Position numbers and translations under genes: made by a program. The notes below the pieces were generated by a model. That model did not search any database and was not told where the DNA came from. It was given only the letters and a program-made list of their open reading frames with translations. From contig CAZSRA010000005.1 in the NCBI GenBank assembly GCA_964609585.1, positions 2,502 through 66,501 of the forward strand: a DNA stretch of 64,000 nt, read 5' to 3'. Source of the DNA: an uncultured Candidatus Saccharimonadales bacterium. Its GTDB lineage: Bacteria > Patescibacteriota > Saccharimonadia > UBA4664. Shown in pieces: positions 22,601 to 62,257 of the stretch (position 1 is its first letter; the number at the start of each line of letters is the position of its first letter).

Positions 22601-22821
22601 TACTTCTTGGAGAGAATACTAAGTATTACCGATAAAACAAATAAAACGGCGAAGACGATGGTGGCATTGAAGATCACGGCTTCAGCGCCGCGCCTGGAAC
22701 GATAGTAATTGGTGTCGCCGCCAAAGGTGGCGCCGAGGCTTTGCCCCCGGGATTGTATCAGGATAAATAACATGAGCATGATGGCCGAGATGACGGTGAT
22801 GGCGTTAAACAGATTTCGCAC
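22600..22821 (-). CDS. secG: preprotein translocase subunit SecG
   Basis: 73 aa with two TM helices and the SecG-like loop LIQSRGQSLGATFGG. Confidence 0.65.
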   Translation of the reverse strand: MRNLFNAITVISAIMLMLFILIQSRGQSLGATFGGDTNYYRSRRGAEAVIFNATIVFAVLFVLSVILSILSKK

Positions 22822-23176: not shown

Positions 23177-23237
23177 AGCTTGGGTATGGTAGCACGAATC
23201 AGACTCCGGCGCTATGGGCGCTGCTTTTTTTCGTGTC

Positions 23238-23702
23238 TTAGGATTGTTTATCGAATAGACTATTTTTATCGGTAGCGGCAACTTTGCTTTCACTTTGAAA
23301 CATCCAACGCACCCCGTATTTGTCGGTGAGAGCGCCGTAACTGCCGAAGGGCATATCGCGAAGATCATCCATGAGATTTTTCGGGGCGTCGGCGGATAGT
23401 TTGTCAAAAATATCTCGAGTGTCGGCATACGAGCCACTATTAATGTACATGCAAATGAGATTACCGGGTTTGGGTAGCCTTGAGTCGTTCGGGAATAACC
23501 AGTCGGAGGCCGAGAAGTCGATGGTGCCACTTATGAGCCGCGCATTTATGACTTTGTCCTGCTGATCGGGGCGCATGTGATTTTTCATAGGTGTTTCGTT
23601 GACTTTCTGCATCGAAAGCTCGCCGCCAAGACAGCTTTTATAAAACTTCATAGCTTCGGCGCAATTGCCCTCAAAAAGCAAGTATGGTGTGAGATTTGGC
23701 AT
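23238..23702 (-). CDS. VOC-family protein (glyoxalase/bleomycin-resistance fold, PhnB-like)
   Basis: Begins MPNLTPYLLFEGNCAEAMKFYKSCLGGEL, which is PhnB/3-demethylubiquinone methyltransferase-like. Confidence 0.65.
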   Translation of the reverse strand: MPNLTPYLLFEGNCAEAMKFYKSCLGGELSMQKVNETPMKNHMRPDQQDKVINARLISGTIDFSASDWLFPNDSRLPKPGNLICMYINSGSYADTRDIFDKLSADAPKNLMDDLRDMPFGSYGALTDKYGVRWMFQSESKVAATDKNSLFDKQS

Positions 23703-27780: not shown

Positions 27781-28389
27781 ATGAGGACAAGCACTTCCCC
27801 TAGCCCACTGGAGCAAAGCATGCGTTTGTTGAACATCCAGGTCCTAGCCGGTGGAACCGGATCAAGCCCCGCACCGACCCACTTCAACTGGCCGATGGTC
27901 GTGCCGATGGTGGCCTTTGCCGTCGGTGTGATCATCATCACTCTGGTCGCGACCTCCCAGAGGAGCCTCTGGAGCGTCCGGATGGTCGCCCTGCTGCTGA
28001 GCGGACTCGGTGCGTTCGTCCTCGGCGGCTACAGTGTGGTACACACGGCAGGCGGACTGTACGTCAAGTCGGCTCCGGCTACCGACAGCGTGATGAACAG
28101 CTGCGGAACCTACCTTGGCCTCGAGGGCGGCGACGCGAACCCGGACGCACTACGGGACTTTCGGATCTGCGTTCACGGCTGGAACAGCGGCCACGGCCGG
28201 CCGGTCCCGGTGACGGTGAAGGTGACGACGACTCTGCAAGACTTCGCCGACCACCACCGTGAGCTTGGTCCGGCCAAGACGCTGATCGTGACCAGCCACA
28301 CGCCTCCTCAGGGCGGCGCGTCAGGGAGCGCCATGTCGGACGACCCGAACATGGCGCTCTATCCGGGCGACCTCGTCGAAGCCGGCTAA
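27781..28389 (+). CDS. hypothetical membrane protein (high-GC)
   Basis: 202 aa at about 65% GC with 2 TM helices. Confidence 0.4.
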   Translation: MRTSTSPSPLEQSMRLLNIQVLAGGTGSSPAPTHFNWPMVVPMVAFAVGVIIITLVATSQRSLWSVRMVALLLSGLGAFVLGGYSVVHTAGGLYVKSAPATDSVMNSCGTYLGLEGGDANPDALRDFRICVHGWNSGHGRPVPVTVKVTTTLQDFADHHRELGPAKTLIVTSHTPPQGGASGSAMSDDPNMALYPGDLVEAG

Positions 28390-28984: not shown

Positions 28985-31822
28985 TTATTTTTGTGGCCTA
29001 GTGGCTTTTTCGAAAATACGCTTGAGGTAGCGGCCGGTGTGGCTGCCTTCAATGCCGGCGATGCGCTCGGGCGAGCCGATGCCGAGCACAGTGCCGCCAC
29101 CAGCACCACCTTCGGGGCCCATGTCGATGAGCCAGTCGGAGCTTTTGATGACGTCGAGGTTGTGTTCAATGACGAGCACGGAGTTGCCGGTGTCGACGAG
29201 AGCGTTGAGGACGGCCAGCAGGCGGTTGACGTCTTCGAAGTGGAGGCCAGTGGTGGGCTCATCGAGAATGTAGAGGGTTTTGCCGGTGGAGCGGCGAGCC
29301 AGCTCGGTGGCGAGTTTGATACGTTGAGCTTCGCCGCCGGAGAAGGTGGTGGCGGATTGGCCGAGATGGATGTAGCCGAGGCCGACTTGGTTTAAGGTAT
29401 CGAATTTGCGGCGGATGGGCGGGATGTTTTCGAAGAATGTGACTGCTTCTTCGACCGTCATGTCGAGAACTTCGGAGATGTTTTTGCCTTTGTAGTGAAT
29501 TTCGAGGGCCTCGCGGTTGTAGCGGCGACCTTTGCATTCTTCGCAGGTTACGTACACATCGGGCAGGAAATGCATCTCGATTTTGATGATGCCGTCACCC
29601 CGGCAGAGTTCGCAGCGGCCACCTTTGACATTGAAGGAGAAGCGGCCGGCTTTGTAGCCGCGGATTTTGGCTTCGGGGGTTTGAGCAAAGAGCTCGCGGA
29701 TGTCGCCGAAGACGCCGGTGTAGGTGGCAGGGTTTGAGCGCGGCGTGCGACCGATAGGGCTTTGGTCGACGGAGATGACTTTGTCGAGATTTTTGAGGCC
29801 TACGATTTCGTCGTGTTTGCCCGGTAGATCGCCGGCGCGGTGATAGACTTGGGCTAATTTTTTGGCGAGGATGTCGTTGACGAGACTTGATTTGCCCGAG
29901 CCGGACACGCCGGTGACGGATACGAGCATGCCGAGAGGGATTTCCACATCGACGCCTTTGAGATTGTGCTCGCGGGCGTTTTTGACAGTGATGGATTTGT
30001 GGTTGCCGGGGCGACGTTTTTTCGGTATTTTGATGGATTTTGCGCCGGAGAGGTACTGGCCGGTGAGGCTTTCGGGTACGGCTTCGACCTGAGCTGGAGT
30101 GCCGGCCGCCACAATGTGCCCACCGTGCTCGCCGGCGAGGGGGCCGACGTCGATGACGTAGTCGGCCATGCGAATGGTATCTTCATCGTGCTCCACGACG
30201 ATGACGGTGTTGCCGAGGTCGCGCAGGCGCACGAGGGTGGCGATGAGGCGGTCGTTATCGCGCTGGTGAAGGCCGATGCTGGGCTCGTCGAGAATATAGA
30301 GCACGCCCATGAGACTGGAGCCGATTTGGGTTGCCAGGCGAATGCGTTGAGCTTCACCTCCGGCGAGGGTGTTGGCACTGCGGTCGAGGGTGAGGTAATT
30401 GAGACCAACATCGCGCAAGAAGCTCAGTCGTGCACTGATTTCTTTGAGGATTTGGGTGGCGATTTGAGCCTCGCGGGCCCCTAGCTCGAGGTTTTCGAAC
30501 ATGCTAGCAGCCTCGCCGATGGAGAGGGTGGTGAGGTCCACAATGGATTTACCGCCAACGGTGACGGCCAGAATTTCGGGTTTGAGTCGTTTGCCGTGAC
30601 ACACGGGGCATTCACGCTCAGTCATGTATTTTTCGATGTCTTTGCGCACAAATTCGGAATCGGTTTCGTGGTAACGGCGCTCCATGTTGGGTATGACACC
30701 TTCGAAATTGGTGTGATAGGTGCGGCCGGCTGGTCCGCGCATGGAGATTTCGGTGTCGCCGGAGCCGTAGAGGATGATGCGTAGGTCGGCGGGCTTCATT
30801 TCGATTACGGGGGTGTCGAGCGAGAAGCCGTAGGTTTTGGCCACGCCTTCGAGGAGTTTGGTGTACCAATTCATGCGCGTAGTGGTTTTGGCCCAAGGGC
30901 GAATGGCTCCTTCAGCCAGGGTGAGGCGGCGATTGGGAATGACGGCTTCGGGGTCCACTTCGAGGCGGGTACCGAGGCCGGTACAGTGCGGGCAGGCACC
31001 GTGGGGTGAGTTGAACGAGAAGTTGCGGGGGGCGATGTCGGGGAGGTTGACCTCGCGGTGGACGGGGCAGGCGTAATGCTCGGAGAAGACCTGCTCTTTG
31101 GCGTCGTCGGGGGTGAGCATTTTAATGATGCCGTCGCTCAGTGCAAGCCCTTGTTCGAGGCTTTCGGTGAGGCGCTGGCGGATGTCGGGGCTGACGGCCA
31201 GACGATCGACCACGGCTTCGAGGGTGTGCTTTTTTTGCTTGTCGAGGTCGGGGAAATCGTCGATGTCGATGATGGTACCGTCGACGCGCAAGCGGGTGTA
31301 GCCAGCTTTGCGGAGTTCAACAGCCACATTGCGGTGCTCGCCTTTTTTGTCGTCGATGACGGGGGCGAGCAGCATGATGCGGGTGTTTTCGGGGAGTTCC
31401 ATAATTTGGTCCACGATTTGGCCCGAGGTTTGGCGCAAGACTTCGCGCCCGCAAATGGGGCAATGTGGGATACCAACGCGAGCGTAGAGCAAGCGCAAAT
31501 AGTCGTAGATTTCGGTGACGGTGCCAACGGTGGAGCGAGGGTTGCGGGAACTGGATTTTTGATCGATGGAAATGGCCGGCGAGAGGCCGTCGATTTGGTC
31601 GACGTCGGGCTTTTCCATGAGGCCAAGGAATTGGCGGGCGTAGGCGGAAAGCGATTCCACATAACGACGCTGCCCTTCGGCGTAGATGGTGTCGAAGGCG
31701 AGGGATGATTTGCCGGAGCCAGATAGCCCGGTAATAACTACGAGTTGGTCGCGCGGAATTTCGACGTCGACGTTTTTGAGGTTGTGCTCGCGGGCGCCGC
31801 GAACCACGATTTTGTCGGTCAT
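28985..31822 (-). CDS. uvrA: excinuclease ABC subunit A
   Basis: Starts [45 protein letters not shown]. It has two ABC ATPase modules and zinc-finger CxxC pairs. The true start is ATG 31822; the ORF-track entry runs 215 codons further upstream through an open high-GC frame. Confidence 0.9.
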
Positions 31823-32022
31823 ACCACCTTTCGCCGGCTTCGAAAACAACACACTGGGCCGGTCATTACGGAGTGGAATTGTACAGGAATTTGGGGGATT
31901 TGGCAAACCATTAGGGGCGTGCATTTTAAAATCGAAAAGCCCCGCGCCCGCCAGCTGGATTGCTGGAGGCACGGGGCGTCCCGTTGATACTTGGAGGTAC
32001 GGCTCGGCTGGCTCGGGGCCGT

Positions 32023-32883
32023 TCAGCCCATGGGCTTGAACTCGCTGAGCGCCTTCAGCTGGCGGACGGCCGAGTTGATTCGCTCGGCCCACAGCCGCGG
32101 CTGGTCGGCGAAGGAGTTGTGGTAGGCGCCGGGCACATACCGTTGCTTCAGGAAGTTCTTGCCGTAGATCCGACACAGGAGCCGCTCGGCGACCCGGCTG
32201 CGCAGGAACCGGTCGTTCCCGTACTCGCAGAAGAGCAGGATGGTCGTGGTGGTGCGCTGGCGAGCGGAGAGGCCGGAGCGGCGGCCGAAGTTGAGCAAGC
32301 AGAGGATCTGAGCTCGCCGGGTCTTGGGATCGACGTCCCCCATGAACTCGACGTGGCGGGCGGAGATCTGCTTGGCCTCTTCTTCCACCACGGGAGCCGG
32401 ACCGGTGACTAGCTTCCACTTCCAGAACGACCGGGGAAGCAAGAAGGTGGCCGGCACTCCGAGGCACAGGACGCCGTGCGGGATGAGCTTGAGGCTCCGA
32501 GCCTTCACCATCGGGTCGATGTAGACGTTGCCGATGAGCTCGACCGACTGGTAGTGCTCGGGATCGTCAGCCAGGCAGTCTTCGACCGCGGTGATTACCC
32601 CGGCGCCCATGGAGGCGCCGATGACGATGAGCCGCCGGTAGTCGTTGGCCTTGGCGTAGTCGAGGATTGCCCTCGCTTCGGCCTCCAAACTGTGGCCACC
32701 GGTGCCGTGGTTGACGGCGACCCAGTCACCACACGGGTCGAGTCCAACCCCCTCGAGTGCTTCGCGCACGATCTCGCCAGAGTTGGCGATCCCGACGGCG
32801 ACCGCGACGAGAAGGTTGGTTTCACCCGTGGGCCGAGGCCCCGTGATGAACGGAGCGATTTCCATGAGAGCCAAAGCCCTCAC
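32023..32883 (-). CDS. alpha/beta-hydrolase-fold protein (high-GC)
   Basis: Nucleophile elbow [10 protein letters not shown] (GxSxG) at about 66% GC. The start may be an internal ATG. Confidence 0.55.
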
Positions 32884-32919
32884 CTCCTAGGGTAGAATCA
32901 ACGTACTTGGGACTTGTAT

Positions 32920-32948
32920 ATTATATCATGAAAACTATAAAAATGCAA
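32920..32948 (-). promoter_or_regulatory. sigma70-like promoter TTGCAT-N17-TATAAT
   Basis: The minus-strand reading is TTGCAT ttttatagttttcatga TATAAT. It lies in an AT-rich linker just upstream of the high-GC ORF 32023-32883. Confidence 0.5.
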
Positions 32949-33056
32949 AATATTACCCCAAAGAAAAGGCCCGGCGGCGTGCCGGGCGGACGCGAAGTTT
33001 TTGGGAGTTGGTAGGTAGCCTTCGAAACCTTTTGTGATGTTACCGTGACCCGTGGC

Positions 33057-33809
33057 CTACCAGAGATGCAAGGGCCACCTGACGTCGGCGTCGAGCCAGT
33101 GCAAACTGAGGTACCAGGAGCTCGAAACGGGGAGTCCCGTCCGGACCTGGTCCACCACGAGGAGTCCTCCGTAGACGGCGAGCATACAGGCCATCAGGAC
33201 GACGATGCGCGTGGGCACGGTCGGAGGGATGTTTGCCTCGGAGGCGCGCCCGACGGCCGTCAGGTTCGTCACCTTCGGGCGCAACCAGTTGTCCATGAGG
33301 GGGACGACGACGTTGAGGACCGTGCCGCCAATCGCCGGGATGATCCCGAGGTTGTGGGCCAGCGACGTGGGCGAGGAGTGCAGGCGCACGTCCAAGTCCG
33401 GCGAGTTGCCGTTGGTGGGCCCGCCGCTCAGGTGGAACCCGATACCGGCGATGAGACCGATGGTGTAGCAGCCGACGTTCCACTTCCAGCCGACGTAGCG
33501 CGTGTCGTTGAACACGCCGCCGATGCGCTCCCAGCCCCAGGCTGCGAAGCTCAGGAGAAGCGGCAGCACGATGGCGTCGCCTAGGACGGCCGCGTAGCTG
33601 ATGTTTCGCCAGCCGAAGCTGTTTGGCTGCATGTGCTGGCAAGCCATCCAGACGTAGGCGATTGCCATGGGGCTGACCACGATGATCCACAGCGGTGCCC
33701 CGACCCTCCGACCGGCCTTTACAGCCGGCATCAGGTTTGCGTACCCGCCCAGACCGAAAAGCACGGCCATGATGGCGAACAAGCGGTCGTCGATTTGCAT
33801 GTAACTCAC
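33057..33809 (-). CDS. hypothetical integral membrane protein (high-GC)
   Basis: 250-aa ORF with about 6 TM helices. Confidence 0.45.
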   Translation of the reverse strand: MSYMQIDDRLFAIMAVLFGLGGYANLMPAVKAGRRVGAPLWIIVVSPMAIAYVWMACQHMQPNSFGWRNISYAAVLGDAIVLPLLLSFAAWGWERIGGVFNDTRYVGWKWNVGCYTIGLIAGIGFHLSGGPTNGNSPDLDVRLHSSPTSLAHNLGIIPAIGGTVLNVVVPLMDNWLRPKVTNLTAVGRASEANIPPTVPTRIVVLMACMLAVYGGLLVVDQVRTGLPVSSSWYLSLHWLDADVRWPLHLW

Positions 33810-33852
33810 CTTTCGTGAGTCGTCTACCCGAGGAACTTCCTCAAGCTTTTAT

Positions 33853-33881
33853 ATTATAACATTTATCTTTCAAATTCGCAA
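33853..33881 (-). promoter_or_regulatory. sigma70-like promoter TTGCGA-N17-TATAAT
   Basis: The minus-strand reading is TTGCGA atttgaaagataaatgt TATAAT, in an AT-rich linker upstream of 33057-33809. Confidence 0.45.
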
Positions 33882-34073
33882 CTTAATCCATGTGACTGAT
33901 ACCTACTTATTTGGTTGAGACTTATGCAATTCACCCCTAACCACAAGTGCCGCCACCTCGTCATGCAGCATAAACTCAGTTCCAGCAAGCTGGGTGAAGG
34001 CGGCGTACGGGGTTAAACTTTCGCCTTCGATCTGCGCTTTTTTCACTCTGGCTTGAACTTCTCTAGAGTCGGA

Positions 34074-34538
34074 TCAATTGTGTAATGGAGCTGGTAGCGG
34101 CGATACCGGATATGGAACATTAACCCGGTAGGTGAAGCATTGATAGCCTTTGGTGTGGGTAGCGGTATTGGGTGAGGCGCCGATTACGATGTTGGGACGG
34201 GCGGTAGCTTGACCGTCGGTTAAGAAGGTGGCACAAAGCTGATATTGGCCAAACAAGGACGGCTTATAATCATAATTTGCGAGTCTTTTTTTAACGCCGC
34301 TGGTGAGGCCGGATAGCTCGGAGAGGCTAGCGGGTAGGGTTGCTGCGCCCGATAAGCCATTTCTGGCTTCGACATCAACAGCCTGGCTGATAGCCGTAAA
34401 ATCTGATTCGATCGTGGCGTCGTGGGCGGGTCCTTGGCGGAGGGCGAAGTTCGTTGCGATAGCGCCAGCACAAAACACGCCAAGCACTAGTACTGTGATT
34501 TGGTAGCGTTGAAGGGGTTTAAGCGTCTTGGTGCTCAT
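34074..34538 (-). CDS. hypothetical exported/anchored protein
   Basis: 154 aa with an N-terminal TM/signal anchor. Confidence 0.45.
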   Translation of the reverse strand: MSTKTLKPLQRYQITVLVLGVFCAGAIATNFALRQGPAHDATIESDFTAISQAVDVEARNGLSGAATLPASLSELSGLTSGVKKRLANYDYKPSLFGQYQLCATFLTDGQATARPNIVIGASPNTATHTKGYQCFTYRVNVPYPVSPLPAPLHN

Positions 34539-35217
34539 CGCGCCAATAGTAGAGAAATATACCGCCGGCTATGGCGAGCGTGATGGCTAGATGGACAAAA
34601 TTGCCGAGGATGCTGCTGGACGCAGGGCTACCGAAAGCGTTATAGGAGGGTGCCGTACTGGTTGGGCTCGATATGAGGCTGTAAACGAAATTAATGACAT
34701 TGCCGAGGCCGACTATAAACGTAACGATGAGTGTGAGCTGGATGCTTTTTTTGCGCGAAGGATCGCGACGAAGACGGTCATCGCTAAGCTCGGCTTTTTT
34801 GAGACGAAGGAAAAGGTAGGCCAGAATGGGAAAGCTCACGATTAGGGCAGATGAGGCGATGGATGTAGGGCCTGTAGAGTCAAGAAGTGAGCCATCGGAA
34901 CCAAAGAGCGTGTTGACACTGGAGTGCAAAATGGAGCCCAGCGAAGTAGCCGCTACGGCAAGCGCAATGAACATGATGATGTACTCCAGACCCCGGGTAG
35001 AGAAGTTTTGGACGACAGCGTGCGGCAATACTTGGGGATCGTGATTCTGTGCGGACGGAGGCGGCGGGACGGGTAGATCGTCGTCCTGACCTTTGAGGCC
35101 TGCAGCGACCATTTTTCTGTCCCAGCCAGCGGCCAAGAGATCGGCTTTAATTTGGTTGTCTGAATGGCCTTTTTCTCGAGCGGCGGCGATGTACTCAACG
35201 AGAGACTGATGCGGCAC
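34519..35217 (-). CDS. hypothetical membrane protein
   Basis: 232 aa with a soluble N-terminus and then 4 TM helices. It overlaps the start of the downstream gene by 20 nt. Confidence 0.5.
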   Translation of the reverse strand: MPHQSLVEYIAAAREKGHSDNQIKADLLAAGWDRKMVAAGLKGQDDDLPVPPPPSAQNHDPQVLPHAVVQNFSTRGLEYIIMFIALAVAATSLGSILHSSVNTLFGSDGSLLDSTGPTSIASSALIVSFPILAYLFLRLKKAELSDDRLRRDPSRKKSIQLTLIVTFIVGLGNVINFVYSLISSPTSTAPSYNAFGSPASSSILGNFVHLAITLAIAGGIFLYYWRDEHQDA

Positions 35218-35276
35218 GAAGGGTTCTCCGTAAATGCTTTTGGTTTATTGTGGGCCCAGGCGATGCGCGTGTCAAA

Positions 35277-35468
35277 TTAGCGGGCGCGGTAGAGATCGGC
35301 TTCGGCGTCTGCCTGAGCTTGTTCGGCTTGCTGCTGCTCAGTGCGCAAATTATCGGCGGCAGTTCTGGTATCGGCAGCTCGGGTATCGAGGTCGTCGGCC
35401 TGTGAGCGAAGGTCGCCGGCTTGGCGTTCGAGATCGTCAGCAGTTCGTTCCATGTCGTTTGGGTCCAT
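35277..35468 (-). CDS. small acidic coiled-coil protein (63 aa)
   Basis: Repetitive D/A/R/Q-rich helix with a GGAGGG motif upstream. The call is weak. Confidence 0.3.
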   Translation of the reverse strand: MDPNDMERTADDLERQAGDLRSQADDLDTRAADTRTAADNLRTEQQQAEQAQADAEADLYRAR

Positions 35469-35600
35469 AGGATGCCCTCCGTTTTTGATATATGGGTATA
35501 TTACCGAGAGGGGGGCAGCTTAGCTTCGTCGGTGGTGAGCAAAAAGGTGTTGGTAACGAGCGGTTTTTTGGAATTTCTCCTAAAAAACAGCGCTAGAGAC

Positions 35601-35637
35601 GCGAAAACCGCCGGGTCCCTTGGACGGACCCGACGGC
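35601..35637 (-). terminator. rho-independent terminator (hairpin plus U-run) after 35650-36111
   Basis: The minus-strand reading is GCCGTCGGGTCC GTCCAA GGGACCCGGCGG TTTTCG, 10 nt after the stop. It is homologous to the hairpin at 36319-36349. Confidence 0.55.
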
Positions 35638-35649
35638 ATCGAACCGTAT

Positions 35650-36111
35650 CTACTGTTCATCCCTCCTGAGAATGGCGAGCCCGGCGTAGACTCCGATGAT
35701 AGAGCCGAGGTATGCCGCGGCCGTGACCACGAACCTGGTCTGGTCCTGCGAAGACAGCTTGTGGAACTCGGCGCCCACAAGCAAGCCTTCGGCCCACTGC
35801 CAGACGATGGCTAGGCCGATTGCCAACGCAACGACGAAGCCGTTGAGGCGGGACAGGCTACTGTCATCGATCTTGGCCGCAATGAAACGGCAGGGCAGAG
35901 CAGTGGCGCAACCCAGTAGGGCCGGGGCCGCCAGCCACACCGGCGGGAGGTCGCCTTTGAACCAGTTGGCGAACCAATTGGCAATTCCGGCGGCCACGAG
36001 GATCGCGAAGATCAGGCTGATGTTCCAGAAGCGCAGGGGCAGGAATCGGTCGATGCGAGCAACCAAGCTATCGGACGAGCGCCGGACGGGGGTGGCGATG
36101 GTGGCAGACAT
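35650..36111 (-). CDS. hypothetical membrane protein (153 aa)
   Basis: 4 TM helices. It is flanked by its own promoter/leader and terminator cassette. Confidence 0.5.
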   Translation of the reverse strand: MSATIATPVRRSSDSLVARIDRFLPLRFWNISLIFAILVAAGIANWFANWFKGDLPPVWLAAPALLGCATALPCRFIAAKIDDSSLSRLNGFVVALAIGLAIVWQWAEGLLVGAEFHKLSSQDQTRFVVTAAAYLGSIIGVYAGLAILRRDEQ

Positions 36112-36193
36112 GGGGAGCTCCAGAGCACGAGGAGGTATGAGTGATATGTGAATGGTTCGGCATCCCGCAAATATTGAGCGTGATGGTTTATGT

Positions 36194-36222
36194 ATTATAT
36201 AATACTTATGCTAAAAATGCAA
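36194..36222 (-). promoter_or_regulatory. sigma70-like promoter TTGCAT-N17-TATAAT
   Basis: The minus-strand reading is TTGCAT ttttagcataagtatta TATAAT. It is followed by an about 85-nt leader containing GATGCCGAACCA. Confidence 0.5.
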
Positions 36223-36300
36223 ATTTAATGTCCAAATGAGAGTTAGGGCAGCAAAATCTGGAATACAAAAAAACAGCCTAAGCTGTTCTGGCGATTCATT

Positions 36301-36349
36301 AGAATTTAAAAGCGGCTTACCGCCGGGCCCCTTGGACGGGCCCGGCGGT
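36301..36349 (-). terminator. hairpin terminator after 36364-36771
   Basis: 11-bp stem CCGCCGGGCCC/GGGCCCGGCGG followed by a short U-run. It is about 85% identical to the 35601-35637 element. Confidence 0.5.
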
Positions 36350-36363
36350 CTCGAACCGATGCT

Positions 36364-36771
36364 TCACTCGTCACTGGTGACGATCTTGTAGGAGAGGAGG
36401 TAGTTGAGGCCGGCGGCGATCAGGAAGATCACGACGGCCCAGGTCAGAGTGGGGTGCGATGACATGTAGTCCCCGAAGCTCTTGTTCGTGTATTCGATGT
36501 TGGCTTTCTTTCTGCCGGCTGGCACCGCCAACGCGAGGGCGACACCAACGACCAGCGTGAAGACGAAGCCGAGCATGTAGGAAACCTGGTATCCGCCGAC
36601 GGTCTCGTGGAAGAGCGCGAACCCGCCGAGTCCGCCGACGGCCCCGAGGAACGCGGCCATGGCGATAGGGGGAATGGCGTGCCCGCCGATGCTTGCGGCC
36701 AGCATGGCTGCGACGACGATGCGGGCGATCACCAGGATCAGTTGCACCTTGGCTACCTTGCTCAATCCCAT
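36364..36771 (-). CDS. hypothetical membrane protein (135 aa)
   Basis: 4 TM helices. Its coding sequence is unrelated to 35650-36111 despite homologous flanks. Confidence 0.5.
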   Translation of the reverse strand: MGLSKVAKVQLILVIARIVVAAMLAASIGGHAIPPIAMAAFLGAVGGLGGFALFHETVGGYQVSYMLGFVFTLVVGVALALAVPAGRKKANIEYTNKSFGDYMSSHPTLTWAVVIFLIAAGLNYLLSYKIVTSDE

Positions 36772-36842
36772 GGGGTCCTCCCGGACAAAGTGATGAATTG
36801 TGGTGGTTCGGCATCGGCCTCGTGTGAGTACGATGTTTTACT

Positions 36843-36871
36843 ATTATATAATGTATTTATAATAAATGCAA
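36843..36871 (-). promoter_or_regulatory. sigma70-like promoter TTGCAT-N17-TATAAT
   Basis: The minus-strand reading is TTGCAT ttattataaatacatta TATAAT, followed by a leader homologous to that of 35650-36111. Confidence 0.5.
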
Positions 36872-36902
36872 ATAAATATTGTCTTCGATCTCGAACTGGG
36901 CT

Positions 36903-36931
36903 TTGGCTTTTTAGAGCTTCGGTCCTATAAT
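36903..36931 (+). promoter_or_regulatory. sigma70-like promoter TTGGCT-N17-TATAAT
   Basis: Sits 30 nt upstream of ATG 36961, with GGAGAG 6 nt before the ATG. Confidence 0.45.
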
Positions 36932-36960
36932 CCTAAACATAATGGGAATGGAGAGTTAGA

Positions 36961-37784
36961 ATGCCAGAACATGGACCCGGAGGTGATCAAGAGCCAGCGA
37001 TGCATGGACGACCAGTCGATGTGTCGGGTGAGCTTAGCGACTTGGCAAAAGCGAAGATCGTAGATAGGACGAATTTATTCACAGCAGTGGCTGGGGCGGC
37101 CGCTCGCGAGTTAGATCGGCACAACGACCAGACTCATGCCGAACAAGGCTCTAGGGTCGATTCCGCGCGAGCCGATCTCGAAGCAGTACATGCTGGAAAG
37201 AGTCGCAGAGATGGTGCGACACCCGAAATGCCCGAAAGCCCCTTCGTCACCGATAAGGACGGGGTCATCTTAGATGTGCCGTCGCTCAGGGCGGTCGGCA
37301 AACAAGATCTTGCAAAACCCACTGAAGAGCCCGGCTTTACAGGAGTTCGAAACGGGCTTACCTACGAAAATGGCGTTATCACTGACATAGGGGTGAACCT
37401 CCCGCCGGTGCCACAGCCCGAACAGCCCGTTTTACCTAGAATTGAAGGGGTTGAATATGACGAGAAGGGTCTTATTACAGGCTTCAAAAAAAGCCCCGAA
37501 CGAGGAGACAGTACACAACCGACTCCACCTTCAATGCCTAAATCGGAGGGAGCAGGCGTACCGACTGAAACGGCTGATATGCCAGCTGCTGTGACCCATG
37601 GACCAATGGTTGGCGTTGAAGGAGCTCTTTCTGGTGTGACACGTCCTGCAGAAGATCAGCCGCAGCAAGCTTCGACCGTTGTCGAAACAACAAGTGCCCC
37701 AGAAGGCGCTCCAGCCAAAAAGCGACTGCGCGATAGACTACCGGGTCGAGCTAAACGGATTCTTGGTTTGGACGGTAAGCATGT

Positions 37785-37788
<4 letters not shown>
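36961..37788 (+). CDS. hypothetical protein (275 aa, P/E/G-rich, high-GC)
   Basis: ORF with RBS and promoter. No recognisable domains. Confidence 0.5.
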
Positions 37789-42417: not shown

Positions 42418-43947
42418 TTGTATTTTATTGACGAATTACGTGCTTTACCCTATAGTCCCGGACACGACGTGAACCTCGACAACCTAGGAGCAATCATGGT
42501 TTTTAAGTGCCGACGGCCCGGAGAGATTCTCGGAAATGTTCTCCAGGACGCTCAGGGAAATGTCACCGGCGGGCGTGTGTTCGGGTGGGAAGCAGAACAG
42601 GGTATTTCTTGCCTAGAGATGCTTGACGGCAAGCTCGAAGTGGCCGATAACCACACGATGTGGAGCATGCTCTGCCATGTATACCCCCCAAGCCACCCCT
42701 TCAATCGTTCGGGTAATCGCCACTACATCGATGTGGGGAGCCACCCCGAGCGCTGTACGGCTGAGCACAATACAGTCCGAGGGATCGTTCGCGATTTCTT
42801 CTTCGGCGAGGGCGAGATGGACCGCCGAGCGCGCGCCGCTACGAGATACTTCAAAGAGGCGAAGCAACGCGATGTCTATCTGAAAGTCTGGGGTGGCAAC
42901 ACTACCGGCGGAGAGACATATGCAGGTCATGCCAACTACCAAATCTGGCTGCCGATCGACACAGCCATCTCAGATGATCGCATGAGTATCGAAGACTTCA
43001 TGTATCCGCTGGCGCCCTTCTTGGCAACCTGTTCTATCGTTCTGGGCGCAGGTGACCTGGTATGGGATGGAGACGGACTCCACATGAACGTGTCCGTTCG
43101 AGCGAGCCGCATCTGGGACGCGTTCTCCTGCTCCACCACCCGAAGCCGATCGCTCGTCAATCTGCGCGACGAGCCGCACGCCGGGGATGGTTCGAGCCGC
43201 CTGCATGTCATCAGCTTCGATGCACCCATCCGACCTCGAACCAAGGCTCGGATACACTCCCTGATGGTCGTACTGCTTACTATGCGCGAGCAGGGCAAGC
43301 TCAAGGGCCTCAGACTATCGGGCGAGGAGCTCGTACAGGTGACTCAAACCGTCACCCGCAACCCGGAGTACAAGTTCTCGCTTGAGTGCGGCAATAAAAG
43401 CGCATTTGATATCCAGAGGACCTATGCCCAGGAAGCCCTGGAGTTCGTCACTGGTCGGGTCGGTCTCGAGCAGTTCGCACCCTGGGTCGAGGACTATATG
43501 CGGTGCCTCGATCTGATCGCCGAGCATGGCTACAACGCCGAGGCACTCAGCGACGAGCTGGACTGGGCCCTTACGTGGGAATCGGTCCAGGAGCTGGTGA
43601 GGGCTGGCCACACCAGCAGAACCAAGCTTTTCGGCCGCCAACTAGAGCTACACCTACATACGGGCAGAGACACCCGACGGATGCGAGCGGCGGCGGCCGA
43701 CCCCTGGTTCGAAAGGTTTGGTCTGCACGAGCTACCCGAAATCCTTGAGCCCCCCAGAACTCGCGCTTGGGCGCGTGGGGCAGTCATCGCGGCCGCCCAG
43801 GAACTCCGCCTGGACTTCAACGCGGATTGGGAGATTGTGGTCGTGAATGGGGAGTCCATTCATCTACCAAAACCCGGCAGCCCGAAACTCCCGTTCCAGG
43901 CTCAGAACTTGGTCCGCCAAGCGGGCCTCGAACACTTACTAGTCTGA
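42418..43947 (+). CDS. Pup-ligase/deamidase family (PafA/Dop-like) glutamine-synthetase-fold amidoligase
   Basis: RVFGWEAEQGIS matches (R)IMGIETE(F/Y)G(V/I)S. YIDVGSHPERCTAE matches PafA YLDVGSHPEYATAE. VWGGNTTGGETYAGHANY matches PafA KNNTDGKGASYGCHENY. GC is about 65%. The true start is probably ATG 42496 (MVFKCRR...). Confidence 0.75.
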   Translation: MYFIDELRALPYSPGHDVNLDNLGAIMVFKCRRPGEILGNVLQDAQGNVTGGRVFGWEAEQGISCLEMLDGKLEVADNHTMWSMLCHVYPPSHPFNRSGNRHYIDVGSHPERCTAEHNTVRGIVRDFFFGEGEMDRRARAATRYFKEAKQRDVYLKVWGGNTTGGETYAGHANYQIWLPIDTAISDDRMSIEDFMYPLAPFLATCSIVLGAGDLVWDGDGLHMNVSVRASRIWDAFSCSTTRSRSLVNLRDEPHAGDGSSRLHVISFDAPIRPRTKARIHSLMVVLLTMREQGKLKGLRLSGEELVQVTQTVTRNPEYKFSLECGNKSAFDIQRTYAQEALEFVTGRVGLEQFAPWVEDYMRCLDLIAEHGYNAEALSDELDWALTWESVQELVRAGHTSRTKLFGRQLELHLHTGRDTRRMRAAAADPWFERFGLHELPEILEPPRTRAWARGAVIAAAQELRLDFNADWEIVVVNGESIHLPKPGSPKLPFQAQNLVRQAGLEHLLV

Positions 43948-43999: not shown

Positions 44000-44128
44000 G
44001 GGGTTTCGATTGCACAATAGTTGCCGATATTTCATAAATGTTATATAAATTACGAACTTGTGTCGCCAACCGGGCGGCCAAGACAGAGGGATGGACCTTC
44101 AAAACCCAACTTTAAGGAGATCATCGAG

Positions 44129-44737
44129 ATGAACCCCCTTTTGGTGGCCATCATGCTGCTTGCCGGCGTGGCCATCGCTATCTTCCTCACGCGACGGCGC
44201 AACCGGAAGATCCGGACCGATCGCGCCGCAGCCAAACGGCGATCCGACCCGTTCGCCGACGAGCGCGCCGCCGGCGGCGACCCGATGAAGATCGGGCCCG
44301 GCACTCAGATCAGGAACGGCATCGAGGAGTACTTCGTCCGCGGTACTGTCACGTGCACCAGCGGTGGCTCCACTTGGTGGGAGCACTACTTGAACACTGA
44401 CGAGGACTCCCCCTACGACTACATCTCGGTCGAGAAGGTGCGCGGGGGCGTGGAGACCTGCGCCTGGAAGACGATCCGAGGTAGCGGCCTGGACCACACC
44501 CAGGATTACCTCACGTACGGCAACCGGAATTACGAGTTCTCCGAACAGAGTGACAACGCACGATACACGACGACCGGCACCACCGACCTCCCACAGGAAA
44601 GCGGCAGCCTCAAGTACGTCGACTTCGCAACCCCGGACGGCCAGTGGAAGCTCTCCTTCGAGTGCTACGACGGGGCCGACTGGGAAGTCAGCGTCGGCGA
44701 GGTCGTGACGGGGCTGGAGATCAACCTCGCAGGCTGA
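44129..44737 (+). CDS. DUF4178-like protein with N-terminal TM helix
   Basis: Start is MNPLLVAIML with AGGAGA 7 nt upstream. Its repeated beta-rich segments (WWEHY; YVDF...GQWKLSFECYDGADWEVSVGEVV) resemble DUF4178, but this is from memory and no HMM was run. A TTGCCG-N17-TATAAA promoter lies upstream. Confidence 0.5.
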   Translation: MNPLLVAIMLLAGVAIAIFLTRRRNRKIRTDRAAAKRRSDPFADERAAGGDPMKIGPGTQIRNGIEEYFVRGTVTCTSGGSTWWEHYLNTDEDSPYDYISVEKVRGGVETCAWKTIRGSGLDHTQDYLTYGNRNYEFSEQSDNARYTTTGTTDLPQESGSLKYVDFATPDGQWKLSFECYDGADWEVSVGEVVTGLEINLAG

Positions 44738-44884
44738 CGGCAACACACGCTAGACCCTGTTCCAGGTCCATCCCTCACGCAGAGGGGCCCCGGGAGCACA
44801 TGCATCCCGGGGCCCTGTGCCCGCACAATTTTACTTTCCTGCAATTATAGGTTATAAATATACGATTACCGGACGCGTGCCATC

Positions 44885-45454
44885 GTGCTCGAGCACGGTC
44901 GCACCTACTATTTGAAGGGAGAGATCCCAACGGTTGAATATCAGGACCAATCTCCGGATGGCCTGAAGCTCGCGATCGTCACCGGAGCGCTCCGCGTTGA
45001 CCAATTCAGTATCCTGCAGGAAGAATCGCTGCGCGCAGCGGATCTGACTGCGAGGTGCCGGATCGTCGGCGCGAGTCATGTCATCGAGTACACGCTCAAC
45101 GGCCTGCCCATGTGGGAGGTTTTTGCGTGTCAGGATGTCGAAGAGGATGCCCTGCGCTATTCGCTGGATCATGTAACGGCCCACGTCGTGGAGACCGAAC
45201 ACCCCGGTGGAGCGCGGCACATCTTCCAAGCCTCGCTGACTTCTACGGAAGCAGCCGAGGAGGACTTGAGGCGACTTCGGCTTCGGCCGCTGCGTCTTGA
45301 GTTCGCGTTCCCGTCTGCGGACGGAACTCAGGCCCCCGTCACCATCATCAGTGGCGAACCCCAATCTGGAGGCATTCTGGTCGAAACGGCTCATTCCTAT
45401 CCCAACTATGGGCAGGTTGTCCTGACCCGCTCAGTTCTTCAGCTTAGGAGCTGA
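44885..45454 (+). CDS. hypothetical protein (high-GC)
   Basis: GTG start. The GC3-rich frame ends with AGGAG positioned for the next gene, implying the same operon as 45460-47073. The antisense ORF 44852-45394 is judged an artefact. Confidence 0.4.
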   Translation: MLEHGRTYYLKGEIPTVEYQDQSPDGLKLAIVTGALRVDQFSILQEESLRAADLTARCRIVGASHVIEYTLNGLPMWEVFACQDVEEDALRYSLDHVTAHVVETEHPGGARHIFQASLTSTEAAEEDLRRLRLRPLRLEFAFPSADGTQAPVTIISGEPQSGGILVETAHSYPNYGQVVLTRSVLQLRS

Positions 45455-45459
45455 TACCT

Positions 45460-47073
45460 ATGTTCAAACCCAGAGTCCGGCGCTGGATTGCCCCGCTCGT
45501 AGCGGTGGCTTTCCTGGCTGCTGGATGCAGTAGCGGCTTGCCCGACAGTTCCAAGAAGCCGGCCGAGGCACTCAAGACGCGCATTGCGACGGTTCAGACA
45601 GACGTCGACGCCGCCAAGAAGTCCTTCGGCCAGCGCCTGCAGCAGCCCGACGCCGCCTTCATGGCCGGATACTCCGACCAGGTGGAAGCCGGCTGGTTCA
45701 CCACCGCCACCAAGGCTCAGACCACTGCCGCCAACCTGTACAACACTCAGGTGGTGCCACTGGTCAAAGCCGACAAGAGCGGCGATGCCAGCAAGGTGAA
45801 CACCCTGGTGAGCCAGGTCAACACCCAGCTCGACACCGCCGAGGCGGATGCCAAGATCCCGGCGCAGCGCATCGGCGACGTCATCAAGACGAAGGCCAAT
45901 GCAGCGACGGTCTCGAAGGCTGCTACTGATCTGGCGACAGCCCTGGACGGCCGGGACACCGACCTGTCCGCTGCCGCCGACCAGGCAGCCAAGAAGCACC
46001 CGACTAGTGCCGCCTCCATCACCAAGCACCTCACCGAGGCGCACGGATGGCGTACGAGCTCGGATGCGGCACTGGCCGCCATGTCATCTACCCTGGCCAG
46101 CAGCACGCCGAACTATGCCACGGTGCTCGACAGCTCGACGACGATCCAGTCGGCGGCCAAGAGTTCCGTGGACAAAACCCCGGCTCTGCTCACGGCACTG
46201 ACCGATCTCGACACGTCGAGCGTGGAAACGCTCGTCGACATGAAGATCACGTGTACCATCACGGTCAGCCGTTCGAGCTGGGACGACAACTCCGACTCCG
46301 ACTCGGTGTCGAACTACACGTTCCCGGTCGTCATGAGTGACAACTCCGAGGTGTGCGCCTACTGGGCGGACTTCGACGAGAAGAACGCCACTGGAGACGC
46401 CAAGTTTGCCCACGTGAACGAAGACTGGGGCAGCCGCGGCGACTTCAACGTCGACAGCGGAATCGACCGCAAGATGTGGGACACCCTGAAAGTCGACGCC
46501 TTCCAGCAATGGCCGGGCAGCGACAATGCGGGGGAGTACTACATCGAGAACGTCGATGCCACGTACTACACGAAGATGGACACGAGCGTCGACGGCGTCA
46601 CCACCAAGGGCGACTGGCAGGAAGTGGACTCCGACGAGTTCGCTCTGCTCCAGGACAGCCTGGGCATGGACATCAGCGAGCGAGCGGTGGGCCAGTTCGC
46701 CGACGAAGCCAACTATCAGCCCTCGCCTCCGGGCGCGCTGTACGTCGGCGACACTCACTACGGCTCGTGGCAGCAGGACACCAGCGGCAACAGCTTCTGG
46801 GTGTTCTACGGCCAGTACCGGCTCTTCAGCGATCTGCTCGGCGGGCCGTTCTACCAGTCCGACTACAATCGCTGGAGCACCGGCTACCGATACCACCAGC
46901 CCTACTACGGTAGCCTCGGTGGACAACCCCGCTGGGGCACCAAAGCGCCCGGTACCGCCGCGCGCTTCCCCGCTAGTACGTTCATTTCGACCGGAGGAGC
47001 CAGAGCCAAGGCGACCGTTCGCGGTGCTGGCCCGGCCGATCGTGGTCGTGGTCCTGGAGGAGGAGGCAAGTGA
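45460..47073 (+). CDS. lipoprotein (537 aa)
   Basis: Signal peptide plus lipobox LAAGC, an Ala/Thr-rich N-terminal half, an aromatic-rich C-terminal region and a Gly/Arg tail (RGRGPGGGGK). Confidence 0.55.
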   Translation: MFKPRVRRWIAPLVAVAFLAAGCSSGLPDSSKKPAEALKTRIATVQTDVDAAKKSFGQRLQQPDAAFMAGYSDQVEAGWFTTATKAQTTAANLYNTQVVPLVKADKSGDASKVNTLVSQVNTQLDTAEADAKIPAQRIGDVIKTKANAATVSKAATDLATALDGRDTDLSAAADQAAKKHPTSAASITKHLTEAHGWRTSSDAALAAMSSTLASSTPNYATVLDSSTTIQSAAKSSVDKTPALLTALTDLDTSSVETLVDMKITCTITVSRSSWDDNSDSDSVSNYTFPVVMSDNSEVCAYWADFDEKNATGDAKFAHVNEDWGSRGDFNVDSGIDRKMWDTLKVDAFQQWPGSDNAGEYYIENVDATYYTKMDTSVDGVTTKGDWQEVDSDEFALLQDSLGMDISERAVGQFADEANYQPSPPGALYVGDTHYGSWQQDTSGNSFWVFYGQYRLFSDLLGGPFYQSDYNRWSTGYRYHQPYYGSLGGQPRWGTKAPGTAARFPASTFISTGGARAKATVRGAGPADRGRGPGGGGK

Positions 47074-48044
47074 TGTCCGACATCAAATCGACGGGGCAAG
47101 CAACGCGCAAGTTTCGCTGGGTGCCGGCGGTCGTGATCTTTGCGGCCAGTGTGCTCGGAGTCACGTACCTGTGGCTGTTCGGTGACCTGCGGAGCTCGAT
47201 CGGGTACTCCATCCGACCGTTCACCTTCGCTCTCGTGGCGCTGGTGATCCTCGTGCTCTTCCGGACGGTGCTCGACCGCATCACGCCCTGGGACGACACC
47301 GCGACTGTCGTGGACGACAACAACGGGCCGATCGCGCTTCAGCGTGCGGCCCAGTACGCGGCACTCCTGCTCGGCATGGGCGGCAGTCTCATCATGGCCC
47401 CAGCTCGTCCGCTCCTGGAAACCCTCGGGTCGTTCGCGCTGGACGGCGTGATCGTAGCGGCAGCCCTCATGGCATCAACCTTCGTCACCGACTGGTACCT
47501 GCTCCGGCACGTCCCGAACGCTGACGAGATGCGAGGAGGCAACTGGGCGGTTGCGTTCGTGGAAGCCGGCGCCTACCTGGCGCTCGGTATCATCCTCAAC
47601 GGCGCCTTCGCCGGCAGGGGTGGCGGTGCCTTGAGCGGCCTGCAGTTCTTCGCGATCGGACAGCTCACGCTGATCGGGACCTACCTGCTCTACCGCATCG
47701 TCAACGCCTGCAGCATCGAGGAGGAGATCCGCACCAACAACCTCGCTCTGGCGATCGAGGTTGGCGGCTTCATGCTCGCCGTGGGCATCGTGCAATGGTT
47801 CGCCATTGCCGGCCCGTTCACGGGCTTCATCCAGGACATGAACTCGTACGCCGAGGCTCTCGTGCCCGGCCTGCTGGCGCTGGCCTTGGTGATGGTCCTC
47901 GTCGACTTGGTGCTCCTGCCGCGTGTCACCCTCCGGGGGAACACGCACCACGGCAAGATTGGGCCCTCGCTGATCATCGCCGGCATCGTCCCCTTCATGG
48001 GGGTGATCATCGGCGCCAGCCTCGCCGCCGGTCTCACCGGCTAA
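47070..48044 (+). CDS. DUF350-repeat integral membrane protein
   Basis: Repeats of the DUF350-type pattern acidic-x-x-(N)xA(V/L)A.xxxG...G (ADEMRGGNWAVAFVEAGAYLALGIIL; EEEIRTNNLALAIEVGGFMLAVGIV). Its ATG overlaps the upstream stop in an ATGA arrangement. Confidence 0.6.
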   Translation: MMSDIKSTGQATRKFRWVPAVVIFAASVLGVTYLWLFGDLRSSIGYSIRPFTFALVALVILVLFRTVLDRITPWDDTATVVDDNNGPIALQRAAQYAALLLGMGGSLIMAPARPLLETLGSFALDGVIVAAALMASTFVTDWYLLRHVPNADEMRGGNWAVAFVEAGAYLALGIILNGAFAGRGGGALSGLQFFAIGQLTLIGTYLLYRIVNACSIEEEIRTNNLALAIEVGGFMLAVGIVQWFAIAGPFTGFIQDMNSYAEALVPGLLALALVMVLVDLVLLPRVTLRGNTHHGKIGPSLIIAGIVPFMGVIIGASLAAGLTG

Positions 48045-48137
48045 CAGGCGACCCTTCTTCGTTCACCCCGTGCCCGTCCCTTCGCCACCTGGCGGCGGGA
48101 CGGGCACCCGACACCGGGACACGCAGGCTAAACCTGC

Positions 48138-62214: not shown

Positions 62215-62257
62215 TATGCAAGTTCAATCCCTTTTTACAACTAGCTTGGAGGCTAGA

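Follow-up and report, generated by a model that had tools for sequence, protein, structure and literature searches.

Two neighbouring genes of an uncultured Saccharibacteria genome, designated A and B, are enclosed by matching regulatory flanks, while their coding sequences lack detectable DNA similarity. We give about an even chance to the interpretation that they derive from an old tandem duplication of one whole transcription unit, or from its acquisition as a ready-made pair, the regulatory signals alone having been retained. Positions refer to the window, i.e., the whole 64 kb stretch of that genome that was analyzed. The pair sits between uvrB and uvrA. A and B can be read as independent transcription units of one gene each, oriented in the same direction. 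Both have a near-consensus promoter of the sigma-70 type, a predicted 5′ UTR of 65–76 nt with an SD, a gene encoding a small membrane protein for which four helices are predicted, and a GC-rich 3′ hairpin. The elements are the following:

36843–36871, minus strand: promoter of unit A, a perfect TTGCAT-N17-TATAAT, from pattern and promoter scans and alignment
36772–36836, minus strand: predicted 5′ UTR of unit A, about 65 nt, its start inferred from the position of the −10 box
36804–36815, minus strand: leader box of unit A, an exact 12-mer, GATGCCGAACCA
36771–36364, minus strand: gene A, 135 aa, orphan membrane protein with four predicted helices
36319–36358, minus strand: 3′ element of unit A, made of the CGGUUCGA box (36351–36358) and a 12-bp hairpin (36319–36349) with loop GUCCAAG
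36270–36289, minus strand: canonical intrinsic terminator downstream of the A hairpin, an 8-bp stem and then a U run, from a terminator scan and the fold of 36260–36366
36194–36222, minus strand: promoter of unit B, a perfect TTGCAT-N17-TATAAT, from pattern and promoter scans
36112–36187, minus strand: predicted 5′ UTR of unit B, about 76 nt, its start inferred from the position of the −10 box
36153–36164, minus strand: leader box of unit B, the same exact 12-mer, GATGCCGAACCA
36111–35650, minus strand: gene B, 153 aa, orphan membrane protein with four predicted helices
35607–35646, minus strand: 3′ element of unit B, made of the CGGUUCGA box (35639–35646) and a 12-bp hairpin (35607–35637) with loop GUCCAAG

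The first-pass annotation had described two adjacent genes with common promoter, leader and hairpin flanks, and all these elements were indeed found, on the minus strand and beyond chance expectation. Both promoters showed the pattern that had been claimed, and the window contained three perfect matches to TTGCAT-N17-TATAAT versus 0.14 expected; the third, at 32920–32948, is ahead of other genes. The likeness between the promoters of A and B reaches past the boxes, with an extended −35 region (TTTGCATTT) and an extended −10 region (ATTATATAATA) in common, and the spacers between the boxes were at shuffle level (alignment z = 1.0). Similar signals occur in related genomes: ATTATATAATA was also present upstream of an unrelated gene in the relative locus L082, and TTGCAT-N17-TATAAT was found in locus L085 (L085:13892) ahead of a GC3-rich accessory gene.

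Concerning the leaders, a common sequence of about 85 nt had been proposed. The 12-mer and the common start context, in which an SD is followed by CCCCATG (GGAG..CCCCATG), bear this out in part, while the lengths came to about 65 and 76 nt, assuming that transcription starts about 7 nt past the −10 box, and the 5′ likeness was not continuous. GATGCCGAACCA starts 27 nt past the −10 box in one unit and 29 nt in the other. With its 12 nt it is the longest substring common to both leaders, and none of 2000 shuffles gave one as long. When A and B were aligned, the stretch from the −10 box to this core (z = −1.1) and that from the core to the ATG (z = 0.1) were both at shuffle level. Over the 5′ flanks as a whole, the best ungapped block was 39 nt at 72% identity, a gapped global alignment had 73 identical positions in 121 aligned columns (60%), and BLASTN at word size 7 recovered only the exact 12-mer.

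In both leaders, CAUC/GAUG is predicted to close a stem-loop at the 5′ end; further inside, the stems are not alike, and these two sequences, the only ones available, align ambiguously. In leader A the stem-loop is CAUCG..CGAUG and the SD (GGGAGGA) is partly inside a small hairpin; in leader B the stem-loop is CAUC..GAUG and the prediction pairs the SD (GGAG) with a CCUC stretch. Neither fold was more stable than shuffled sequences (−15.1 kcal/mol, z = −1.1, for A; −11.5 kcal/mol, z = 0.08, for B). The ATG within GATGCCGAACCA opens in both units an upstream ORF beginning MPNH, which in A and B alike is in the +1 frame relative to the main start, the leader lengths being 9 nt apart. These upstream ORFs have no properly spaced SD, and their AUG sits within the predicted 5′ stem. 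Many genes of the window appear leaderless, while A and B have long leaders. Rfam at the gathering threshold gave just two tRNAs in the whole window, and a permissive scan of 35500–37000 (E up to 10) gave no match over either leader. A pairing of CGAACC in the leader with GGUUCG in the 3′ box was also considered and discarded: the RNAduplex registers differed between A and B, and the B duplex had p = 0.14.

The 3′ elements are clearly homologous. Each consists of a CGGTTCGA box and a 12-bp GC hairpin past the stop codon, and over 40 nt they are 88% identical (alignment z = 15.6, with 0 matches expected by chance), in good agreement with the identity of about 85% reported before. The folds were markedly stable for A (−35.8 kcal/mol, z = −4.3) and B (−32.9 kcal/mol, z = −4.0). 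A and B are identical in the 8-nt box and in the 7-nt loop, and their stems differ in a compensated manner. The four stem substitutions between A and B, including one compensatory change from C-G to U-A, keep the mRNA-strand pairing in 24/24 cells (100%), whereas the plus strand pairs in only 22/24 (92%); under random substitution, the retention of mRNA-strand pairing has P ~0.01. This shows the signature of selection on RNA structure and, since the pairing is kept on the mRNA strand only, it is reasonable to interpret that the hairpin acts as RNA.

The features of these hairpins, which are stable, GC-rich, located past the stop codon and associated with a U tract, fit an intrinsic terminator or a 3′ stabilizing hairpin. 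UUUU directly follows the B hairpin, and the A hairpin has a weak U tract 9 nt downstream in addition to the canonical terminator listed above. GC-rich hairpins at the 3′ end are also seen in many other genes of the window. Rfam gave over hairpin A a few weak sub-threshold matches, which reflect the stem-loop only. The T-arm-like CGGUUCGAxxCCG raised the idea of an attachment site derived from a tRNA, or of a 3′ end resembling one. This was rejected: neither ARAGORN nor Rfam detected a tRNA at this place, the short stem shares positions with the 12-bp hairpin and, by eye, there is no acceptor strand or CCA end.

The called reading frames of A and B are confirmed by their GC3 (0.86 and 0.81, respectively), which is higher than that of the neighbouring genes (0.54–0.71). 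Neither protein had a homologue among 5.8 billion sequences in a word-index search, nor a family match in Pfam, PHROGs, NCBIfam or PADLOC scans, and for B no homologue was found by full phmmer (HMMER) against 1.84 billion representatives. The AF2 single-sequence models contain four main helices plus a short one for A (pLDDT 61) and four helices for B (pLDDT 60), values too low for the folds of A and B to be compared. The proteins had been described as different. This stands at the level of statistical significance and needs qualifying insofar as both are of the four-helix membrane type and give a weak collinear match covering TM2-TM3 (BLASTP E = 0.009 over 49 residues, as a single comparison). 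Their Smith-Waterman score was equalled in 6/1000 shuffles, but in 42/1000 block shuffles. A and B were each other's best non-self phmmer match among 391 ORFs of the window, with a non-significant E = 0.18. Between the coding DNAs there was no BLASTN match, and their likeness was at shuffle level.

Further copies of the flanks, whose complete absence the first-pass annotation had named as a refutation of its proposal, were not found in the searched sets. Fuzzy and nhmmer searches gave no third copy of either flank in the 64 kb window, and none in 93 loci (1.5 Mb) that included the closest relatives. The IMG/VR viral contigs gave 0 hairpin matches and two matches to the leader pattern, both within coding sequence. 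Four hairpin matches in JGI metagenomes, on contigs of 63–72% GC, covered the palindromic core with no other flank sequence and were attributed to chance. Likewise, no integrase, recombinase or transposase domain was detected in the about 46 ORFs of the window scanned against Pfam; the search for a site-specific recombinase nearby, as the first-pass annotation had advised, found none in the 64 kb, and no integrase or recombinase was seen in the homologous slots of relatives. These relatives were found by a UvrB protein search, as the GTDB representative genomes share only 67–74% UvrB identity and are too distant for synteny. The gene content of the uvrB-uvrA interval differed in every related Saccharibacteria genome compared; a locus from a second sample (L001) was 100% identical to the window and added no variation.

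On these data we infer a duplication, the roles of the boxes and the co-regulation of A and B as follows. One ancestral unit would have given rise to A and B, most likely by an old tandem duplication, or else the two may have arrived together, already paralogous, in a uvrB-uvrA stretch that appears to gain and lose genes freely in the host lineage. Positions free of constraint, in the coding DNA, in the promoter spacer and over most of the leader, would then have been randomized, and the fast-evolving membrane proteins would have drifted into the twilight zone. Only short functional signals would have been kept by selection, namely both promoter boxes (−35 and −10), the 12-nt box, the SD with the start context, and the CGGUUCGA box with its hairpin. 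The GAUG of the 12-nt box would serve as the 3′ arm of the 5′-terminal stem-loop, and the hairpin would work as mRNA-strand RNA, either as a terminator or as a protector of the 3′ end. The identity of the 12-mer, the 8-mer and the 7-nt loop in both units suggests a common trans-acting factor and the joint regulation of both mRNAs.

The duplication is favoured by the same order, orientation and adjacency of the elements, the similar sizes and the like start context, by the clear homology of the 3′ element, and by the matching offset of the 12-mer from the −10 box. The likeness is punctate and the segments in between do not exceed shuffles, a pattern that deep divergence under selection would be expected to leave, and all four stem substitutions keep the mRNA-strand pairing. 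The proteins argue in the same direction with their common four-helix membrane type, equally high GC3, weak collinear TM2-TM3 match and reciprocal best matches. So do the lack of further flank copies in the searched sets and of a recombinase or transposase in the window, and the variable content of the uvrB-uvrA interval among close relatives. The case is weakened by the fact that protein homology between A and B is not established, given the block shuffles and the phmmer E value, by the coding sequences being without DNA similarity, and by the need for non-coding signals to outlive the coding sequence, which is unusual. Moreover, with two copies only, selection is not fully separable from a recent copying of the flanks alone, and the promoter likeness may merely be a lineage consensus, as the occurrences in L082, at 32920–32948 and in L085 indicate.

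In an unlikely but not negligible explanation, A and B would be unrelated genes, possibly from a donor of higher GC, and local copying or recombination would have equipped each of them separately with one and the same set of promoter-leader and terminator sequences. It would account for flanks that are significantly similar around coding sequences and proteins that are not, and for the GC3 of A and B, which looks foreign compared to the neighbours; the same promoter type does stand ahead of other GC3-rich accessory genes (32920–32948 and L085:13892). The phenomenon is documented under the name of putative mobile promoters, where similar upstream regulatory sequences precede non-aligning genes, as in the case of A and B; the criterion is an upstream alignment of 50 nt or longer with no less than 80% identity (Matus-Garcia et al., NAR 2012; PMC3488235). 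The 5′ likeness of A and B, 39 nt at 72% plus the 12-mer, falls below that criterion, is punctate instead of forming a single recently copied block, and occurs in just two adjacent copies with no third in the searched sets; in addition, the 3′ end is common too. The promoter part can be accounted for by the lineage consensus, and both cargo proteins belong to one size class, with four-helix topology and reciprocal best matches.

A shared cis-regulatory site on A and B is possible, and the first-pass annotation had likewise considered the leader a potential cis-regulatory RNA. The stronger proposal that function, not common descent, explains the matching flanks is an unlikely one; in it, the leader box, with or without the 3′ box and hairpin, would be a specific cis-regulatory RNA element, which could be a riboswitch-like sensor, a leader-peptide attenuator based on the upstream ORF, or the binding site of a regulatory protein or small RNA. 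The identical 12-mer at a matching position in otherwise randomized leaders speaks in its favour, as do the MPNH upstream ORF with its conserved +1 frame relation, the invariant box and loop next to a stem varying with compensation, and the long leaders among many apparently leaderless genes. Against it are the absence of Rfam matches at any E value up to 10, leader folds of no more than shuffle stability, upstream ORFs devoid of a properly spaced SD and with the AUG inside the predicted 5′ stem, the inconsistent 5′-3′ box pairing between A and B, and the absence of the motif from the relatives and collections searched. Besides, 12 nt is too short for a ligand-binding aptamer.

Integron cassettes are promoterless and linked to the tyrosine-recombinase integrase IntI, the attI site and the Pc promoter, and their attC is an imperfect palindrome at the cassette 3′ end, bounded by the core sites RYYYAAC and GTTRRRY. 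That A and B could belong to a mobile gene-cassette array, integron-like or made of recombinase-associated immunity genes, with flanks acting as recombination sites for the swapping of unrelated cargo, is highly improbable. Some resemblance exists, as the genes are small, co-directional and of skewed GC, a palindrome-containing intergenic sequence is repeated, the pair is located in a hypervariable chromosomal slot and, speculatively, small membrane proteins are plausible immunity factors. On the other hand, neither the 64 kb nor the corresponding slots of relatives yielded an integrase or recombinase, there are two units only, each with a strong promoter of its own, no copies occur elsewhere in the searched sets, and neither PADLOC nor PHROG gave a match. 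The hairpin, with a perfect 12-bp stem whose conservation is in the RNA sense, differs from the imperfect palindrome of attC, and GCCGAAC and GGTTCGA misfit the core sites (by eye) and bracket the coding sequence instead of lying within one site. In the rAID-1 arrays of Bacteroidales, a 5′ XerD-like recombinase precedes two or more genes of one orientation, up to 31, whose GC is skewed towards lower values and whose intergenic sequences are repetitive (bioRxiv 10.1101/471110). A and B share with them the small co-directional genes, the GC skew relative to the surroundings and the repetitive intergenic sequence, and differ in having no XerD-like recombinase, two genes, higher GC and no similarity to immunity families, and in belonging to another phylum. 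So, the cassette-type organization and mobility put forward in the first-pass annotation are unsupported because of the lack of copies in the searched sets and of a recombinase, the own promoter of each unit, and flanks which, as that annotation had itself remarked, are not canonical attC. What the pair resembles is a probable local duplication of old date within a variable chromosomal region, and not a mobile gene-cassette system.

Ordinary tandem paralogues provide the closest comparison for such a duplication. A and B resemble them in adjacency, co-direction, element order, gene size and membrane topology, as well as in the homologous terminator, the common leader box and the promoter type. 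They differ in that the coding sequences have diverged past significant detection while short non-coding signals persist, and in that both proteins are complete orphans. Concerning the 3′ end, a comparison can be made with REP/BIME palindromes and shared intrinsic terminators, as a GC-rich hairpin past the stop codon could stabilize the mRNA or terminate its synthesis; the A/B hairpin differs from these in occurring in two copies and in having an invariant 8-nt box and 7-nt loop that a plain terminator does not need.

To our knowledge, almost nothing is known of post-transcriptional control in the host phylum. In this respect, the 12-nt box and the CGGUUCGA box with the GUCCAAG loop might be a new pair of UTR signals for an RNA-binding factor that jointly controls a few fast-evolving envelope proteins, or else a reusable "expression jacket" that domesticates foreign genes. 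We regard this as decidedly unlikely; if it were true, more members would be expected elsewhere in the host genome. The pair would gain greater weight only if the UTR boxes defined a regulon or a reusable expression module. If the duplication is true, A and B would be a small, clean case of regulatory signals outlasting the genes they served, and they would show how orphan membrane proteins restricted to one lineage come and go in a hotspot of the reduced genome of an epibiont. In that case they would provide useful background on the evolution of the Saccharibacteria envelope, and not a new mechanism.

Units A and B, two neighbouring minus-strand transcription units, have the same layout of elements:

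36871..36843, minus: promoter A, TTGCAT-N17-TATAAT
36836..36772, minus: predicted 5′ UTR of A, about 65 nt
36771..36364, minus: gene A, 135 codons, ATG at 36771
36358..36351, minus: 8-nt box of A, CGGTTCGA, five bases past the stop codon
36349..36319, minus: hairpin of A, 12 bp, loop GTCCAAG
36289..36270, minus: canonical terminator of unit A (terminator scan), separate from the conserved hairpin
36222..36194, minus: promoter B, TTGCAT-N17-TATAAT
36187..36112, minus: 5′ UTR of B, about 76 nt
36111..35650, minus: gene B, 153 codons
35646..35639, minus: 8-nt box of B
35637..35607, minus: hairpin of B, with TTTT directly after

Both reading frames were confirmed by GC3 in the called frames (0.86 in A, 0.81 in B).

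The flank likeness that the first-pass annotation had described for these two adjacent genes is real. The 3′ elements (8-nt box plus hairpin) are 88% identical over 40 nt and their likeness clearly exceeds chance, with an alignment score of z = 15.6 and two occurrences in the window of a degenerate 29-mer of the element versus 0.00 expected. In the leaders, the 12-mer GATGCCGAACCA shows no differences between A and B and starts 27 nt (A) or 29 nt (B) downstream of the −10 box; it is the longest substring common to both leaders, and its length was equalled in 0 of 2000 shuffles, so the match is beyond chance. Otherwise the 5′ likeness is punctate, without a continuous block: the promoter spacer (z = 1.0), the stretch from −10 to the core (−1.1) and that from the core to the ATG (0.1) are at shuffle level, as are the coding ends (first and last 60 nt).

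The promoter likeness may reflect just a lineage consensus. Perfect TTGCAT-N17-TATAAT occurs three times in the window versus 0.14 expected, the third copy (32920-32948, minus) lying upstream of a GC3-rich alpha/beta-hydrolase gene (32023-32883). The same promoter type is found in the relative L085 (position 13892), at the equivalent position upstream of a hydrolase gene non-homologous to that of the window, and the relative L082 has the extended −10 ATTATATAATA ahead of an unrelated gene. As the same promoter signals stand ahead of other genes, only the leader 12-mer and the 3′ box with its hairpin are specific to this pair. By eye, TTTGG-N8-TTTGCATTTTTA is common to promoter B and the promoter at 32920-32948. 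The ATTATATAATA of promoter B is palindromic and creates a plus-strand promoter-like site, TTGAGC-18-TATAAT (36174-36203), facing antisense of the terminator and coding sequence of A; an antisense transcript is possible.

The pairing pattern of the 3′ hairpin marks it as an RNA element of the mRNA strand. Both copies are predicted to fold into a 12-bp stem (−33 and −36 kcal/mol, z about −4). They differ by four stem substitutions, two giving G·U pairs and two jointly changing C-G to U-A, which leave 24 of 24 stem cells paired on the mRNA strand and turn two into C·A mismatches on the plus strand; the chance that four random substitutions spare all 12 pairs is about 1%. Neither the box nor the 7-nt loop varies; as the 40 columns contain just five differences, this alone is weak evidence (P = 0.08). 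Many window genes are followed by GC-rich hairpins without strong U tails, unrelated in sequence to the A/B hairpin.

Whether searched by exact match, fuzzy match or profile, the window and 93 loci (1.5 Mb) yielded just the A and B copies and their identical duplicates in L001, a locus from a second sample. IMG/VR gave no hairpin match; two leader-pattern matches there were both within coding sequence, and four JGI metagenome matches to the hairpin core, on contigs of 63–72% GC, had only the palindrome in common with it. The further copies that the first-pass annotation had proposed to count were absent from the window, the 93 loci and IMG/VR for both leader and hairpin, and from the JGI metagenomes for the hairpin.

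No Rfam family was detected over either leader, even up to E = 10, and the stability of the leader folds did not exceed that of shuffles (z = −1.1 and +0.1). In the minimum-energy fold, both leaders carry a 5′-terminal stem-loop closed by CAUC(G)/(C)GAUG, whose GAUG is formed by the first bases of the 12-mer, and the Shine-Dalgarno sequence (SD) lies in part within a small predicted hairpin. A 5′-terminal stem-loop stabilises a bacterial message against decay, and that of the A and B leaders may act likewise. The AUG inside the 12-mer (36814 and 36163, minus), within the predicted 5′ stem, opens an upstream ORF starting MPNH in both units, in frame +1 relative to the main start; it has 147 codons in A, spanning the entire gene, and 31 in B, and is preceded by no well-spaced SD in either. 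A pairing of the leader box with the 3′ box was inconsistent between A and B. Many window genes (27781, 62216, 39785 and others) have a TATAAT-like box immediately at the start codon or a few bases upstream of it, which suggests leaderless mRNAs; A and B, in contrast, have long SD-bearing leaders.

The window, from a Candidatus Saccharibacteria genome, is ordinary chromosome: it carries uvrA, uvrB and uvrC as well as genes for glycolysis and transketolase. The segment bounded by uvrB and uvrA (31821-37785 in the window; about 12000-17600 in L082, L083, L085 and L086) holds a different gene set in every relative (UvrB 85–88% identical) and is a gene-content hotspot of this lineage:

L082 and L085: small coiled-coil proteins, DUF5671, pilin-like gene
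L083: glycoside-hydrolase, malectin and discoidin-domain genes
L086: BamHI-type restriction-modification pair

In the window, the stable core of this segment is made up of DUF5671, the pilin-like gene and a coiled-coil gene. Its coiled-coil protein, 63 aa long and encoded next to B on the downstream side (35277-35468, minus), is 49% identical to a 70-aa L085 protein and 40% to a 74-aa L083 protein. A and B are flanked by this core on one side and by a divergently transcribed gene of 275 aa on the other, and no relative compared has a counterpart of either. Their GC3 (0.81–0.86) stands out from neighbouring genes (0.54–0.71) and resembles that of the higher-GC relative L082, which makes acquisition from a related lineage plausible.

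Elsewhere in the window, GC3 is 0.80–0.91 at 27781-28389, 32023-33809, 44021-49919 and 62216-63130 versus 0.45–0.60 in other genes (genome 56% GC). This spread, with 49% to 62% GC across the genomes with 85–88% identical UvrB, points to a fast base-composition shift in the lineage; the GC3-rich genes may derive from higher-GC relatives. Also encoded in the window are a protein of the Pup-ligase family (Pfam E = 6.7e-41) and a PrcB_C-domain protein (42418-43947, 50046-50678); pupylation/proteasome components are characteristic of Actinobacteria, the group that usually hosts Saccharibacteria. A 241-aa protein (22805-23530, minus) has a Phage_holin_4_2 domain (E = 2.5e-26), as does a 122-aa protein near SecG in L085. 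The window protein resembles a conserved membrane protein of the chromosome more than a prophage component.

No homologue of A or B was found among 5.8 billion sequences, nor of B among 1.84 billion representatives (full HMMER), and Pfam, PHROGs, NCBIfam and PADLOC gave no significant match. In AF2 models, which are of low confidence (pLDDT about 60), A and B each have four long helices. Compared with each other, A and B gave a BLASTP E of 0.009 over a collinear TM2-TM3 stretch and a Smith-Waterman score of 46, equalled by 6/1000 residue shuffles but 42/1000 block shuffles; among 391 window ORFs they were mutual best non-self phmmer matches (E = 0.18). These comparisons are compatible with very old paralogy without proving it.

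The cassette-type organisation suggested by the first-pass annotation was not borne out: only two copies were found in the sequences searched, each unit has its own promoter, and the nearby recombinase it had proposed to look for was absent, with no integrase, recombinase or transposase among about 46 window ORFs scanned. A mobile cassette system is very improbable: set against either the integron or the rAID-1 (10.1101/471110) model, A and B do not match in recombinase, in the structure of the sites, in the number of copies or in promoter content. The main rival has unrelated genes each recruiting the same regulatory sequences separately, in the manner of "mobile promoters" (PMC3488235). We consider it unlikely: the upstream likeness falls short of the alignment of at least 50 nt at 80% identity or more used in that work, and separate recruitment must account for the common size class and topology of both proteins.

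The most economical account, to which we give about an even chance, is that one complete transcription unit was duplicated in tandem long ago, or that an already paralogous pair was acquired together, in the variable slot. After duplication, neutral positions would have been randomised, with short functional signals kept in both units. A specific shared cis-regulatory site is possible and compatible with duplication. The likely explanation is an ordinary one, a duplicated orphan pair that retained its signals.
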